This document shows, one piece after another, positions 3,791 through 8,731 of a stretch of 64,000 nt of DNA (the first letter of the stretch is position 1; the number at the start of each line of letters is the position of its first letter). The notes beneath the pieces were generated by a model. It searched no databases. It was not told the origin of the DNA and saw nothing but the letters and a program-made list of their open reading frames with translations. The stretch is from positions 32,001 through 96,000 of the forward strand of contig CAWEZH010000002.1 of NCBI GenBank assembly GCA_963813535.1, given 5' to 3'. The DNA is from an uncultured Chloroflexia bacterium (GTDB taxonomy: Bacteria > Chloroflexota > Limnocylindria > Limnocylindrales > CSP1-4). The position numbers and the translations under genes are program-made.

Positions 3791-3837
3791 GTCCCGGACG
3801 GCGAGCCGCTCATCGACGACCTCTCAGCGGCGGCCGG

Positions 3838-5023
3838 TCAGTCGAGGCCGACCAGCAGCATCGGATCGCCGAGCTTGCCGTCGTACCTCGGCCGGAACCG
3901 CTCCGCGTTGTACATGACGGGCACATCCACCCGACGCGGCCCGAGCGCCGGATCGGGCAGGCTGGCATGTGCGTATTTGCCGTCCTGGATCGCGACCATC
4001 CGACCGCTCACACCGTCCTCGATCAGGTCCATCGCGACGTTCGCGAACGTCGTCGCGACCATCGAATCGATCGAAATCGGGCTCGCCCGACCGGAGGTCG
4101 TAGGTCAGCTCGGAGGCGAGCGTCTCGATACCGGTCCGGGCGCGTAGCTCGTAGGCGAGCGCCTCGCCGACGTTCGCCTTGTGGCGATGTCCGAAGGCAT
4201 CGGCCTCGCCGATATCGCTCACCCTGGCGCCCCGCCAGATCGCTCCTTCGGCGGTGATGACGAACGCGTAGTGGCTCGGATTGGCGGCATGGTCGGCAGC
4301 CAGCAGACGCGCCAGCGCATCGAGGTCGTAGGGTGCCTCCGGGATCACGCAGCGCGCCGAGGTCACATACGCCGTGTACAGCGCCGAGAACCCGGCATCC
4401 CGACCGAAGATCCGGAACACCCCGATCCGTTCATGCGACCCGAGCGTAGTCCGCTGTCGGTTGATCGCCTCCTTGGCCCGGGTGATCGCCGTCGAGAAGC
4501 CGATGCAGTACTCGGTTCCCTGGACGTCGTTGTCCATCGTCTTCGGGATCGCGACGAGGGCGACGCCCGCGTCGGCCAGCACCTGCGAGTAGGAGAGGGT
4601 GTCGTCGCCACCGATCGTCACGAGGACATCGACCCCGAGTGAGCCGAGATGGTCGAGCACCAGCGGGGTCAGGTCGAACAGGTCGTCGCCGACCGCGTAG
4701 CGGGCCCGATCGTCCTCCGGCAGCCAGACTGGCAGCGCCTTGGCGCGCATCTTGCGCGGGTTGGTCCGCGAGGTATGGAGGATCGTGCCGCCGGTCCGCT
4801 CGATGGTGCGGGTGTTGATCCGATCGAGCGGCCGGATGTAGCCGCTCCCGCCGCCGCCCGGAAGCTCGGGCTGGACGTGGGTGAGTCCCTCCCAGCCGCG
4901 CCGGATCCCGGTGACGTCGTAGCCGGCCTCGGTGGCGCGGTAGACGACGCTCTTGATGACGGCGTTGAGCCCCGGTACGTCGCCACCGCCGGTGAGGACC
5001 GCGATGCGTTTGGGGGTCGACAT
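3838..5023 (-). CDS. pfkA: 6-phosphofructokinase, probably PPi-dependent; +1 frameshift at 4074-4076, true C-terminus in ORF 3838..4062
   Basis: TGGGD.PGLN, GGT.L.TSR, GGDDT and PKTMDND (Asp/Lys pattern of PPi-type enzymes); removing one A at 4074-4076 gives YDLRSGEPDSIDSMVATTFAN. Confidence 0.85.
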
Positions 5024-5120
5024 GCCGGACTGAATCCTAGCGTTTCGACGGAAGGCATCGGGGTTGCGGTTCGGTGGCCCCGAGCTGAGGGCCGACAGGC
5101 GTCTGCTAGCATCGGCCGCG

Positions 5121-5561
5121 ATGAACTACGAGCTGTTCATGGGCGAGGCTCTGGCCGAAGCGCGATTGGCCATGGAACGCGGCGAGCGACCGATCGCCGC
5201 GGTCGCGGTCGTCGACGAAGCGATGGTCGGCCGTGCCCATGACCGCGTCGAGGAGACGGACGATCCGACGGCCCACGCGGTCGTGGTCGCACTCCGCGAA
5301 GCCTCCCGTCGCCTGGGTCGGGGACGGCTGGCCGACGCCACGATCTTCGCGACGATGGAGCCGTGCGCCATGTGCGTCGGGGCGCTGCTGGAGAGCGATG
5401 TCGAGGCGCTCGTTTATGCGGTCCCAAACACGCGCAACGGTGCTGCCGGCACCGTGATCCAGCTTGCGCAGCATGCGTCGTTGCCGCGTCGGATCAAGAT
5501 CGTCAGTGGGATCCGGCGAGACGAGGCCGAGGCGATGCTCACGGCCAGTACGACCGTCTGA
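5121..5561 (+). CDS. tadA: TadA-like nucleoside deaminase-fold protein lacking the catalytic Glu (HAV instead of HAE)
   Basis: GE.P, DPTAHA, T.EPCAMC, GAAG motifs; sits in the canonical tadA-SRP RNA-dnaX locus. Confidence 0.8.
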   Translation: MNYELFMGEALAEARLAMERGERPIAAVAVVDEAMVGRAHDRVEETDDPTAHAVVVALREASRRLGRGRLADATIFATMEPCAMCVGALLESDVEALVYAVPNTRNGAAGTVIQLAQHASLPRRIKIVSGIRRDEAEAMLTASTTV

Positions 5562-5610
5562 CCGGGGGTCGTCCAAGGGTCGTCCGAGCCTCGTTTGGTA
5601 TCCTCCCGGC

Positions 5611-5696
<86 letters not shown>

Positions 5697-5750
5697 GCAC
5701 TCGTGACGCGGGACCGGTCGGCGCGTTTCCGACCGGTCTTGACGTGTCCG

Positions 5751-5838
5751 GGAGAGGTCGCCTAGTGGACTATGGCGCCGCACTGGAAATGCGGTTCGGG
5801 GCAACCCGTCGCGGGTTCGAATCCCGCCCTCTCCGCCA
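5751..5838 (+). tRNA. tRNA-Ser(GGA)
   Basis: GGAGAGG/CCTCTCC stem, CCGCA-CTGGAAA-TGCGG arm, long variable arm, CCA end. Confidence 0.95.
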
Positions 5839-5865
5839 CCCGCGTCGCGACCGGAGCGGCCGATG

Positions 5866-5939
5866 CCCGCGTTGGCGCCTGCGGTCCTCACTCACGCACC
5901 TGCAGGTGCGCTCGTTCCGGTCCTCGGACGCCGCCTTGG
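5866..5939 (-). repeat. 74-nt dispersed palindromic repeat, copy 1 (REP-like)
   Basis: Reverse complement CCAAGGCGG..CCGAG..CGAGCGCACCTgcAGGTGCGTGAG..AGGCG.CAACGCGGG matches 35559..35632. Confidence 0.8.
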
Positions 5940-6054: not shown

Positions 6055-6789
6055 ATGACCGACATCGAGATCGTCCCGCTCGAGCTCGGGGAGTTCCGGT
6101 TCCCCGATCCGGAGCTGGCCGGTCGACGCGGCGTCGTCATGGGCTACGCCGTCCGGCATCCAGGCGGGATCTTCCTATTCGATACCGGCTTCGGGTTCGG
6201 CAATACGGAGCTCGACGAGACGTACCATCCCGTCCGGCGTCCGATCAACGAAGTGCTGTACGACGCGGGTATCGATCTCCGTGACGTGACGGCAGTCGCG
6301 AACTGCCACCTCCACGCCGACCACGCCGGCCAGAACGGCGCCTTCCGCGACCTGCCCGTGCAGATCCACGTCCAGACGGCCGAGTGGGAGCTGGCGCACA
6401 CGACCGATCACACGGTGCTCGAGTGGATCGATGCGCCGGGTCTGGACGCCTACCTCCTGGTCGATGGAGATCACGAGGTGACGCCCGCGATCCAGCTGAT
6501 CGCGACGCCAGGGCACACCAAGGGTCACCAGTCCGTCGCGGTGGGGACGCCCGGTGCCCCGGTCGTCGTCCTTGCCGGCCAGGCCTGCTACACCGCCGGT
6601 GAGTGGGAGGGCGATCCAGACGCGCTCGAGGGCCGCAGCGGCGCGCCAGACAGCGCCGCCTACGACGCCTCGATCGCGCATCTCCGCGGCCTCGACCCGG
6701 GGTTGGTCTACTTCGCACACGACCGCGCCGTGTGGACCGCCGGAGCCGGTGTCCGATCCGCGCCTGCTATCCTTCCGGGGCCGTGCTAG
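6055..6789 (+). CDS. Metallo-beta-lactamase-fold hydrolase (N-acyl-homoserine lactonase/AttM-like)
   Basis: LFDTG, HLHADHAG, TPGHTKGHQS, C-terminal AHD; the usual bridging Asp reads Gln (LAGQA). Confidence 0.8.
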   Translation: MTDIEIVPLELGEFRFPDPELAGRRGVVMGYAVRHPGGIFLFDTGFGFGNTELDETYHPVRRPINEVLYDAGIDLRDVTAVANCHLHADHAGQNGAFRDLPVQIHVQTAEWELAHTTDHTVLEWIDAPGLDAYLLVDGDHEVTPAIQLIATPGHTKGHQSVAVGTPGAPVVVLAGQACYTAGEWEGDPDALEGRSGAPDSAAYDASIAHLRGLDPGLVYFAHDRAVWTAGAGVRSAPAILPGPC

Positions 6790-7046
6790 GCGGGGAACTA
6801 GCGGTGCCCTGTAGCCTGCAATCCGCTCCAGCAGGGCCGAATCCCCTCTCGAGGTCTCCGTTCTCGGTCGCCGCCCGTCGGTGCGACGTTGAGGATCGGG
6901 TCCCGCGCAGCGGCGAACCGCGAACCGTGTCAGGTCCGGAAGGAAGCAGCACTAAGCGATCATCGCCGGGTGCCGCGGAACGGCCTGATCCGAGCCGCCC
7001 GACGTGGTGGGCCCGAGCGACGGTTGATCGACGGAGGGTGCACGGC
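6780..7046 (+). ncRNA. ffs: Signal recognition particle RNA, large Alu-domain (Bacillus-type) form
   Basis: GCCGTGC/GCACGGC terminal helix; Alu-like 5' GCTAGGCGGGGAACTAGCGGTGCCCTGT; helix 8 motif TCAGGTCCGGAAGGAAGCAGC; directly upstream of dnaX. Confidence 0.92.
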
Positions 7047-7081: not shown

Positions 7082-8731
7082 GTGACCACGACCGCACCGC
7101 ATCAGGCGCTGTACCGACGCTGGCGCGCCCAGACCTTCAGCCAGATCGTCGGCCAGGAGGCGGTCGTCGAGACGCTTCGGAACGCGGTCCGCACGGACCG
7201 CGTGTCGCACGCGATCCTGTTCGTCGGTCCGCGCGGGACGGGCAAGACGTCGCTGGCGCGGATCCTCGCCAAGGCCGTCAACTGCACGAACCTCCAGGAC
7301 GGCGACCCATGCGACGCCTGCGAGGCGTGCGTCGCGGTCCGCGAGGGCACGACCCTCGACGTCCTCGAGATCGACGCCGCCTCGAACCGCGGCATCAACG
7401 AGGTCCGCGATCTGCGCGAGCGTCTGGCCTATCCGCCAGGACACCTTCGCCGCAAGGTATACATCCTCGACGAGGCGCACCAGATCACCCGCGATGCCTG
7501 GAACGCGCTCCTGAAATCGCTGGAGGAGCCACCCGACTTCGTCCTCTTCATGTTCGCGTCGACGGAGCCGTCCGGCTTCCCGCCGGCGATCCTGTCGCGA
7601 CTGCAGCGCTACGACGTCCGACGACTGACGGTGCCCGAGATCGAGGGCAAGCTGACTCGCATCCTCGAGGCCGACGGTCGGACCATCGAGCCGGCCGGCC
7701 TGACGTTGATCGCGAGACTCGCCGCCGGCGGCATGCGCGACGCCGAGTCGATCCTCGACCAGCTGCTCTCGACCTCGACCGACACGGTGACCGAAGCTGC
7801 CGTTCGCGACCTGCTCGGCATGGCCGACGCGGCCGCGGTCGATGGGTTCGTGGAGGCGCTGCAGACCGGTGACGTCGCGGCAGGCATCGCCGTCCTCGAT
7901 GCGCTCGAGGACCGCGGCCGCGACCCACGCGCACTGCTCGATCAGGTCGTCGATGTCGTCCGCGCCCGACTCATCGACCCGACGACCGCCGATCCCGCCG
8001 CGCTCGTCGAGGTGGCCCGCCGCCTCGTGGCGATCGATCCGGACAGGGCCGGCATCGGCGGGCTTCGACTGCAGCTCGAGCTGGCGTTGTTCGCCGGTTC
8101 AGGCCGCGCGTCGCCTGCGGCCCAAGCCACGGTGTCCGCGCCGACGGCGACGTCTGGCACGGTGCCCGCCTCGGCGAACCGGACGCGAGGCGGACCGCCA
8201 GCTGTCCCGGCCAAGGTCCAGACCTACACGCAACCCGCGGTCGAGCCGCAGCACGCCGAGCCGACGGGACCGTCGGTGGCCACCGGCGAGGCTTCTTCGG
8301 AACCCGCGCAGCCCGCGGGACCTGCGGAACCCGCGGCTGCGAGCGTCGAGCCCGTGCCGGAGCGTGCCCCGGTCGCCGTGTCGATCGGCGTCGGCGACGA
8401 CCTCGACCGCCTCGTCTCTGACTGGTCGATCATCGTCGGGTCTGCCCGGCCGGCGACGCGCGCGGTCCTGAGCGAGTGCCGCCCGATCGCCGTCGATGGC
8501 AATGTCGTCACGCTCGGCTTCCCGGAGGCCAAGGCCTTCCTCAAGGACCACGCCGAGCGTCGTCGTACCGAGGTCGAGGCCGTCGTCGGAGGCCACCTCG
8601 GTCGTGAGGTGAGCGTCCGGTCGGTCGCCACCAACATCGAGGTCGCGCCCCTCGCGGTGGCCGACGACCTCGTGGCGGAAGCGCGGCGCATCTTCGGGGA
8701 AGACCTGGTCGACGTCGCCGAGGTCGACTGA
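7082..8731 (+). CDS. dnaX: DNA polymerase III subunit gamma/tau
   Basis: ALYRRWR, GPRGTGKTS, Cys zinc cluster, EIDAASNRG, DEAH, SR.Q; low-complexity linker before the C-terminal domain; SD GGAGGAGG. Confidence 0.95.
   Translation: MTTTAPHQALYRRWRAQTFSQIVGQEAVVETLRNAVRTDRVSHAILFVGPRGTGKTSLARILAKAVNCTNLQDGDPCDACEACVAVREGTTLDVLEIDAASNRGINEVRDLRERLAYPPGHLRRKVYILDEAHQITRDAWNALLKSLEEPPDFVLFMFASTEPSGFPPAILSRLQRYDVRRLTVPEIEGKLTRILEADGRTIEPAGLTLIARLAAGGMRDAESILDQLLSTSTDTVTEAAVRDLLGMADAAAVDGFVEALQTGDVAAGIAVLDALEDRGRDPRALLDQVVDVVRARLIDPTTADPAALVEVARRLVAIDPDRAGIGGLRLQLELALFAGSGRASPAAQATVSAPTATSGTVPASANRTRGGPPAVPAKVQTYTQPAVEPQHAEPTGPSVATGEASSEPAQPAGPAEPAAASVEPVPERAPVAVSIGVGDDLDRLVSDWSIIVGSARPATRAVLSECRPIAVDGNVVTLGFPEAKAFLKDHAERRRTEVEAVVGGHLGREVSVRSVATNIEVAPLAVADDLVAEARRIFGEDLVDVAEVD

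Follow-up and report, generated by a model that had tools for sequence, protein, structure and literature searches.

A conserved TadA ortholog without the catalytic glutamate in Limnocylindria that have lost tRNA-Arg(ACG)

TadA is regarded as the bacterial enzyme for wobble inosine (inosine at tRNA position 34, I34). What does it mean when a bacterial tadA lacks the codon for the catalytic glutamate: is this an error, a stage of decay, or a state that selection maintains? The question is raised by a tadA-like gene of 146 codons in a 64,000-nucleotide (nt) stretch of DNA, here called the window, from an uncultured bacterium of the class Limnocylindria (Chloroflexota). The source genome (G000; 3.28 Mb in three contigs, 69.5% G+C, 92.9% completeness) contains the window at C2:32001-96000. 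Families of the class are coded f1 to f5: f1, with about 30 genera, is the family of the window, f1 and f2 form its order, and f3 is a sister family whose TadA carries the motif His-Ala-Glu (HAE). The window gene proved to be an ortholog of tadA that encodes His-Ala-Val (HAV) instead, in a lineage that has lost the substrate tRNA, and it is under purifying selection.

Translation of the intact open reading frame (ORF) gave a protein with the motifs DPTAHAVVVAL and EPCAMC. The zinc ligands of TadA, His and PCxxC, are represented in the sequence by H52, C82 and C85, and the protein would thus be expected to bind zinc, whereas the HAE motif reads H52-A53-V54. Direct reading of the valine codon, GTC, showed that two substitutions separate it from GAA or GAG. 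HMMER aligned residues 2-141 without a gap to residues 7-146 of the 167-residue E. coli-derived TadA chains 8e2q and 8e2p, and the offset of +5 (H57, E59, C87, C90, 106, 108) is therefore correct. An earlier note on this DNA, made from the letters alone, had proposed this alignment, the retained zinc ligands and the replacement of Glu by Val; all three were borne out.

The glutamate is missing from the orthologs as well. HAV was found at each of the 30 loci that represent further species of the genus, and none of the 63 orthologous loci across f1 (60 HAV, 2 HAI, 1 HPV) or of the 20 loci of a second family, f4 (18 HAV, 2 HAL; proteins 53-61% identical to the window protein), encoded Glu. The codon at the Val54 position in relatives was GTC, GTG, GTT, GTA, ATC or CTG, never a Glu codon. 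Species-representative genomes yielded at least 590 stretches encoding relatives, and the 80 loci that were kept (records labelled Candidatus Limnocylindrales, Candidatus Limnocylindria, Chloroflexota, uncultured Chloroflexia and a few other labels) comprised 77 HAV and 3 HAI. In a collection of 5.8 billion proteins, 119 of the 120 best matches had HAV. Among the best 150 cluster representatives at 50% identity, 34 had HAV (down to about 44-54% identity) and 90 had HAE, the latter at most 51% and mostly 35-48% identical to the window protein; the remainder were 22 fragments without the motif and four singletons of other kinds. Independent singletons among the representatives (HxV, HxR, HxP and HTQ; P0161, P0149, P0236 and P0202) stem from short contigs and could be neither placed nor verified. 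HAE was found in all 27 f3 and f5 TadA loci examined, together with the C-terminal FF...RR helix. One f4 genome (G212) contained a second, canonical HAE TadA (184.5 bits; L110 on C60, a contig of 3.4 kb), which groups with unrelated TadAs, is probably bin contamination and was not used.

These counts bear on the possibility that the missing Glu codon is a mistake of sequencing or assembly. The assembly may hold indel errors, and the frame of the neighbouring phosphofructokinase-family gene looks shifted near its 3' end. The change considered here, however, requires two base substitutions and not an indel, the same residue recurs in hundreds of independent assemblies, and the contigs of public sequencing runs that cover 5280-5282 show no alternative letter among the differences listed (119 differences were unlisted). 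The probability of an artefact is accordingly negligible.

Selection on the gene was estimated with a Nei-Gojobori (NG86) script on MAFFT-guided codon alignments, as rates of nonsynonymous (dN) and synonymous (dS) substitution. Within the genus, the medians were 0.133 for dN, 0.916 for dS and 0.138 for dN/dS (range 0.047-0.267; 251 of 253 pairs usable), and the closest pair, G000 and G024, showed a dN of 0.014 and a dS of 0.265. Other HAV groups gave dN/dS values of 0.21-0.27, and three f3 genera with an HAE TadA gave 0.17, 0.20 and 0.28; all these ratios are approximate because dS is high (median 0.9). Within this approximation the HAV protein is constrained at least as much as true TadA. The two checks asked for in the earlier note, conservation of HAV among orthologs and dN/dS, thus spoke for a maintained gene: no ortholog in the genus, f1 or f4 encoded Glu, and 0.14-0.27 is not relaxed relative to the 0.17-0.28 of HAE TadA in f3.

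The same data weigh on the idea that the gene is a functionless relic, either slowly decaying or kept as an ORF for signals of the downstream tRNA-Ser and signal recognition particle (SRP) RNA genes. Such a relic would agree with the loss of the canonical function, with the loss of the gene in f2 and in two f3 genomes, and with the disrupted frame in three of the 30 genus loci (L034-L036), which may reflect assembly error or real decay. It is nevertheless improbable. The dN/dS of 0.14-0.27 is seen across clades that are only 48-60% identical, 20 residues including the zinc ligands are invariant in 71 HAV sequences, the Val codon turns over synonymously with no escape from V, I or L, and in species-representative genomes at least 590 candidate stretches contain the gene in intact form. 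The loss of the glutamate is a fixed, selected state, neither error nor decay.

If the protein no longer deaminates, is there still a substrate in the genome? ARAGORN reported 51 and Infernal 47 tRNAs in G000. The arginine tRNAs have the anticodons GCG, UCG, CCG, CCU (two copies) and UCU, and every four-codon box, CGN included, is read by a trio with G34, U34 and C34. With these two programs, no genuine tRNA-Arg(ACG) and no other tRNA with A34 was found in this 92.9% complete genome. An 'Arg-ACG' call of ARAGORN at C2:109330-109413 was rejected for its length of 84 nt, its 8-bp acceptor stem, its mismatched T arm and the lack of a counterpart among the 47 tRNAs of Infernal. Further ARAGORN calls outside the window, at C2:1329486 and C2:1331472 (Glu-CTC and Leu-GAG), also came without Infernal support. 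These Arg-ACG, Glu-CTC and Leu-GAG calls of 84-93 nt are likely false positives in a 70% G+C genome. Because tRNA-Arg with GCG, UCG and CCG is present and no genuine ACG is, CGN codons are decoded without I34, as the earlier note had suspected.

For the relatives, a strict tRNA pattern (end of the D stem, anticodon loop, T loop) was applied to incomplete metagenome-assembled genomes (MAGs), in one sample of 151 genomes from the order, each with a completeness of at least 80%, and in another of 121 genomes from the class. In the order, the ACG pattern occurred in four of 151 genomes, all four with anticodon stems unable to pair, and the GCG pattern in 136 (114 of 122 in f1 plus G000, and 21 of 28 in f2), with compensatory changes in the anticodon stem. 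In the class, ACG was found in 28/39 genomes of f3, 0/40 of f4, 1/35 of f1 (a non-pairing chance match), 0/5 of f2 and 0/1 of f5, and GCG in 32/35 of f1, 5/5 of f2, 38/40 of f4 and 4/39 of f3. HAE TadA thus goes with ACG, HAV with GCG, and the streamlined f2 has GCG but no tadA. The single f5 genome departs from this, with an HAE TadA and neither the ACG nor the GCG pattern. Removal of four genomes flagged as unpublished leaves the result as it is. The tRNA-Arg(GCG) gene usually lies 1-10 kb from the HAV gene and is directly adjacent to it in G107.

Two of the four f3 matches to GCG are real tRNAs, in G181 and G213, and both genomes are without a TadA-type match. In each, tRNA-Arg(GCG) is directly followed by tRNA-Arg(UCG) (L170 on C26 and L171 on C21), and the GCG tRNAs combine an acceptor stem of the f3 type with an anticodon arm like that of f1 and f4. 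These may be independent switches from ACG to GCG with outright loss of tadA.

How the HAV gene arose was addressed with an IQ-TREE quick tree of 128 sequences, which is a tree of TadA proteins. All f1 and f4 HAV proteins formed one clade (Shimodaira-Hasegawa-like approximate likelihood ratio test, SH-aLRT, 92) on a long stem, and its sister was a single HAE metagenome protein, P0162 (95). Monophyly was found for f4 (99) and for f3 with f5 (99), and the HAV representative P0161 stood outside the HAV clade on a long branch. The order tadA-like gene, tRNA-Ser, tRNA-Ser, SRP RNA was present in 11 of 11 f1 and f4 loci, and in four of five long f3 loci this tRNA-Ser pair and SRP RNA follow the HAE tadA on the same strand, at a distance of 2.5-6 kb. 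The shared neighbourhood and the nesting of the HAV clade among HAE TadAs demonstrate that the window gene is orthologous to tadA.

In the order, the TadA model matched in 114 of 122 f1 genomes and in none of 28 f2 genomes; a protein query likewise found nothing in 24 f2 genomes. From these distributions we infer that one change of E to V, tied to the switch from ACG to GCG, may have taken place in the ancestor of f4, f1 and f2, with later loss of the gene in f2, whose genomes measure 1.0-1.4 Mb. Within 1.5 kb of the junction of SRP RNA and dnaX, five f2 genomes showed neither a tRNA-Ser pair nor a remnant of tadA; the region has therefore been rearranged and not simply deleted. The SRP RNA of these genomes (L252-L256, G037-G041), whose gene immediately precedes dnaX, aligns to the large-SRP model at positions 111-210 only; with about 98 nt it is of the small, 4.5S-like form.

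The window protein matched Pfam MafB19-deam (PF14437) with 88.6 bits (threshold 27) and dCMP_cyt_deam_1 (PF00383) with 75.6 bits (threshold 25), which places it in the CDA superfamily, and it scored 116.4 bits on the NCBIfam TadA model NF008113 (PRK10860), under the cut-off of 150 bits. None of the 151 genomes of the order reached this cut-off (maximum 125.2). Pipelines nevertheless label the Glu-less proteins (P0004-P0121, P0122, P0145, P0202 and others) 'tRNA(adenine34) deaminase', 'tRNA(Arg) A34 adenosine deaminase TadA' (JGI) or 'nucleoside deaminase' (NCBI); judged by the sequences, these deaminase labels are unsupported.

An AlphaFold2 model computed from a 73-sequence alignment reached a mean predicted local distance difference test (pLDDT) value of 96.8. 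Foldseek superposed it on TadA structures with template modelling (TM) scores of 0.96-0.98, a root-mean-square deviation of 0.8-1.3 Å and 33-38% identity over the aligned structure columns. As a homodimer, the protein was predicted with a score of 0.84 against 0.00 for the best of three controls; the runs agreed in at least 98% of contacts, and the pLDDT of the partner was at least 92. In a benchmark, 20 of 30 proteins whose structures had been solved as one-chain pairs came up to this mark, as did one of 23 solved as single chains; these counts hold only roughly because an alignment of our own was used here. The pass may also reflect likeness, since TadA dimers are among the solved structures. 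The predicted interface includes D48-T50, H52, C82-M84 and V86-A88 (window-protein numbering), and the protein may dimerise in vivo in the manner of this model.

Which parts of TadA have been kept and which given up was examined by comparison of 71 HAV sequences with 27 HAE sequences of the class and 27 other HAE sequences (E. coli numbering). Kept in all three groups are M12, A15, E18, D53-P-T-A-H57-A58, L75, E85-P-C87, M89, C90, G92-A93, V103 and G112-A113. In the HAV proteins constraint was lost at V28, G31, G38, E49, W73, V82, A97, S116, L145, F148 and F149; in addition, N46 became mostly D or E (59 of 71 sequences), R48 became V, R98 became D or Q, K110 is variable and N127 became P. Newly fixed or switched are E59V, V40M, A79T, Y81F, A91V and G105A, and an N-terminal motif appeared with Y3 and E4 in all 71 sequences and N2 in 67 (window-protein numbering). 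The HAV proteins are shorter than HAE TadAs (median 147-150 versus 158-159 residues) and more acidic (median isoelectric point 5.2-5.5 versus 6.2). The window protein itself has Asp41 at the N46 position and P/R in place of N127/H128, and it ends before F148/F149 and the basic C-terminal helix kept by its HAE relatives, as had been read from this single sequence before.

N46 and the C-terminal helix with FF and basic residues count among the RNA-contact and signature features specific to TadA. For S. aureus TadA, an excerpt of PMC3711424 gives D104, K106 and N123 (E. coli 108, 110 and 127) as RNA contacts; only the equivalent of 108 is retained in HAV proteins, as D or N. The degraded contact and signature positions (N46, R48, W73, K110, N127, F148/F149) and the acidic character speak against tRNA binding of the canonical kind; with contact residues degraded in this way, the HAV protein is unlikely to bind an anticodon loop as TadA does. 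The window protein may still bind nucleic acid, as the earlier note put forward, but several of the positions through which TadA contacts tRNA have degenerated.

A feature singled out before was the presence of Val101 and Asn103 in the window protein. They occupy positions 106 and 108, and A106V and D108N were the first mutations of adenine base editors. The residues are indeed there and are common in close relatives (V in 45 and N in 64 of 80 loci), but across the clade (n=71) position 106 is V in 33, L in 20 and A in 9 sequences, and position 108 is D in 45 and N in 25. Val106/Asn108 is therefore not a clade character and, without the proton-shuttle Glu, has no evident functional meaning. 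The base-editor variants of TadA (PDB 8e2q, 8e2p, 6vpc), which share both residues with the window protein, differ in that E59 is kept and they are active.

Could the protein still be an enzyme, with a zinc site served by another proton shuttle, for instance the Asp or Glu at the N46 position, or one whose substrate has changed, for example to DNA, another site in RNA, or a free nucleoside or nucleotide? Conservation extends to the zinc ligands, the DPTAH loop, EPCxMC and the GAAG loop, purifying selection equals that on true TadA in strength, most members offer an acidic residue at N46, and the best PDB sequence matches are laboratory-evolved TadA variants that act on DNA (8e2q with 103.9 bits, versus 95.6 for wild-type 1z3a). 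Continued catalysis is unlikely all the same. Excerpts of PMC3711424 and PMC3239186 count the Glu of HxE among the catalytic elements that define the deaminase superfamily. The HAV clade has gained no acidic residue that is invariant: deep genera show A, P and others instead of D or E at position 41, and the residues of the 106/108 type vary.

The exchange of Glu for Val is also the mark of eukaryotic ADAT3 (Tad3), and the earlier note had suggested that the protein may be a subunit without catalytic activity that pairs with an active deaminase from another locus, in a heterodimer like that of ADAT2 and ADAT3. Like the window protein, ADAT3 is a TadA-derived, conserved pseudoenzyme with HxV and retained zinc ligands (PMC3239186, a deaminase-fold survey whose excerpt lists Tad3 without Glu; PDB match 7nz7_B), ADAT3 chains were detectable homologs in the PDB sequence search (E 3e-9), and two other HxE genes of the CDA fold are present in the genome. 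ADAT3, however, is a paralog, acts together with the catalytic ADAT2 and carries an additional tRNA-binding domain at its N-terminus (PDB chains of 317-320 residues). The window protein is a single domain of 146 residues starting at helix 1; it is the sole ortholog and is itself dead, and it is predicted to pair with itself. G000 has only three CDA-fold genes: the HAV gene, one for an FCY1-like protein of 157 residues (HGE...PCDMC) and one for a deaminase-glyoxalase fusion. On the TadA model the latter two reach 64.9 and 45.5 bits. Many relatives with an HAV gene lack these paralogs, and in many the HAV gene is the only match at E<=1e-10. Neither a TadA-type HAE gene nor an A34 tRNA was found in this 92.9% complete genome. 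The heterodimer is thus highly improbable, even more so than a relic, and the claim was not sustained.

The glutamate is fixedly absent, the known substrate class is absent, and selection is as strong as on active TadA; together these observations point to a function independent of canonical deamination. The window protein is thus probably a stand-alone pseudo-deaminase under selection, with a role that does not require deamination; any specific partner is much less probable than this. The course of events was probably as follows. In the ancestor of f1 and f4, tRNA-Arg(ACG) would have been replaced by GCG, with UCG and CCG also present, and wobble inosine would then have been unnecessary. TadA would have lost the proton-shuttle Glu (E59V), several tRNA-contact positions and the end of the C-terminal helix. 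The zinc site, the TadA fold and, probably, the homodimer would have been retained, and purifying selection would have acted on the protein since then. As a guess, a zinc-stabilised dimer may bind a ligand or partner through the remodelled face of the former active site and the invariant N-terminal N-Y-E-L/M-F/Y-M helix, in binding or scaffolding rather than catalysis.

Several observations weigh against a selected role without deamination. The gene is dispensable in some backgrounds, as its absence from f2 and from the two f3 genomes with tRNA-Arg(GCG) shows, and three genus loci have a disrupted frame. The dN/dS values are approximate, and the tRNA pattern was a strict one on incomplete MAGs. 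The RNA-contact positions are degraded. Expression support is weak as well. No public run contained more than 24% of the sampled words, and four runs compared with the window gave short contigs only; they included one 294-nt contig (5091-5384, 7 differences) from a library of guessed RNA status and two metatranscriptome pieces of about 50 nt. These pieces hint weakly, if at all, that relatives transcribe the gene, and do not amount to evidence.

The features around the gene are listed in the table. The synteny of tadA, SRP RNA and dnaX and the intactness of the gene, both claimed in the earlier note, were found as described, and the start at 5121 is kept in orthologs, which begin MNYEL.. as well.

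Table. Features of the tadA-like gene and its neighbourhood in the window (window coordinates).
Feature	Coordinates	Strand	Evidence
HAV-type tadA ortholog, 146 aa	5121..5561	+	Translation; Pfam and NCBIfam matches; AlphaFold2; Foldseek
His52 codon (zinc ligand, E. coli H57)	5274..5276	+	Translation, alignment; invariant in 71/71 HAV-clade sequences
Val54 codon GTC at the catalytic-Glu position (E. coli E59)	5280..5282	+	Direct reading, alignment
Cys82-Ala-Met-Cys85 (zinc ligands, E. coli C87 and C90; Cys82 codon 5364-5366, Cys85 codon 5373-5375)	5364..5375	+	C82, M84 and C85 invariant in 71/71
tRNA-Ser(CGA), conserved downstream neighbour	5611..5696	+	Order kept in 11/11 f1/f4 loci
tRNA-Ser(GGA), conserved downstream neighbour	5751..5838	+	Order kept in 11/11 f1/f4 loci
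Metallo-beta-lactamase-fold ORF, between the tRNA-Ser pair and SRP RNA	6055-6789	+	
Large-type bacterial SRP RNA	6781..7045	+	Rfam RF01854, 180 bits
dnaX (DNA polymerase III tau/gamma)	7082..8731	+	Pfam DNA_pol3_delta2, DnaX_C and related domains
Phosphofructokinase-family gene (pfk), divergent	3824..5023	-	Pfam PFK, 199 bits

Because pfk upstream is transcribed divergently, the tadA-like gene probably has its promoter or promoters in the 97-nt spacer between the two. The earlier note had credited the gene with a promoter of its own; a consensus scan of 4950-5900 returned no sigma-70-like promoter and no terminator, which did not confirm the claim and carries no weight either way. No conserved protein-coding neighbour that could be a candidate partner was found; the ORF upstream of an f4 gene (L150:2141-3019) is without a Pfam match. 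In the window, the end of the metallo-beta-lactamase-fold ORF overlaps the start of the SRP RNA. In 10 of 11 other f1 and f4 loci the SRP RNA follows within about 150 nt of the tRNAs, and L078, the remaining locus, has about 2 kb in between. The last 80 or so residues of the pfk ORF look out of frame (rich in Arg, Gly and Asp) from near 4060-4100, the PFK match covers residues 6-316 only, and a 74-residue ORF at 3838-4062 (-) resembles a genuine C-terminus. A frameshift in pfk, by an assembly indel or a real break, is probable.

A second wobble system came to light in the same genomes. G000 has a tRNA-Ile(UAU) at C2:1862827-1862902 (-), outside the window, and only two CAU tRNAs, and the TilS model TIGR02432, positive in 14 of 14 named control genomes, had no match in it. 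In the 121 genomes of the class, TilS was matched in 0/35 of f1, 0/5 of f2, 38/39 of f3, 39/40 of f4 and 1/1 of f5, and the tRNA-Ile(UAU) pattern in 30/35 of f1, 4/5 of f2, 0/39 of f3, 0/40 of f4 and 0/1 of f5, with covarying anticodon stems. The order of the window, one of free-living Chloroflexota, thus appears to read AUA without lysidine, which would have been lost after the inosine system. AUA reading without lysidine is known so far from Mycoplasma mobile, and an excerpt of PMC3575796 names Bifidobacterium and Neorickettsia species. Tentatively, and with less assurance than the stand-alone pseudo-deaminase itself, the HAV protein may represent an 'afterlife' of TadA, kept by selection for some non-catalytic task in RNA or translation biology. 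This would be the first step in a staged dismantling of the two wobble-editing systems specific to bacteria, inosine and TadA, then lysidine and TilS, in the order of the window, a free-living lineage.

Compared with known systems, the protein resembles bacterial TadA (E. coli, S. aureus, B. subtilis YaaJ) in its fold, its zinc ligands, the gene neighbourhood shared with f3 and the predicted self-dimer, and differs in the Glu-to-Val change, the score below the NCBIfam cut-off, the degraded tRNA contacts, the truncated C-terminal helix and the missing tRNA-Arg(ACG). Excerpts of published work put TadA at the bacterial root (PMC6063277) and describe B. subtilis tadA (yaaJ) as dispensable (PMC10454642), and a passage of a review (PMC8007984) states that all sequenced Thermotogae and Spirochaetes have tRNA-Arg(GCG) in place of ACG. 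The closest parallel is the 'life without TadA' of Mollicutes, for which the part of Yokobori et al. (2013; PMC3711424) drawn on here reports replacement of tRNA-Arg(ACG) by GCG and/or UCG, with loss of tadA, once A-to-I activity was relaxed. In Mollicutes tadA was lost outright in tiny parasitic genomes, whereas the HAV lineages are free-living, soil-type bacteria with genomes of 2-4 Mb that keep a dead copy under selection; in this class outright loss was seen only in the 1.0-1.4 Mb genomes of f2 and in two f3 genomes. In the excerpts of papers covered by a literature search, PMC12255301 included, no conserved, catalytically dead bacterial TadA was described; subscription journals and supplementary tables (e.g., of PMC3711424 and PMC3575796) lay outside its scope.

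For practice, I34 should not be assumed in HAV genomes, either by annotation or in models of tRNA modification. For the biology of the group, the class offers a dated series for the rewiring of the CGN decoding box outside reduced parasites, and a bacterial counterpart, without a partner protein, of the change from E to V in eukaryotic ADAT3. A clade of abundant soil and freshwater Chloroflexota possesses a TadA that is unable to work by the known mechanism and whose substrate is absent, yet conserves it as tightly as the real enzyme, and thereby provides a natural experiment on other uses of the TadA scaffold.

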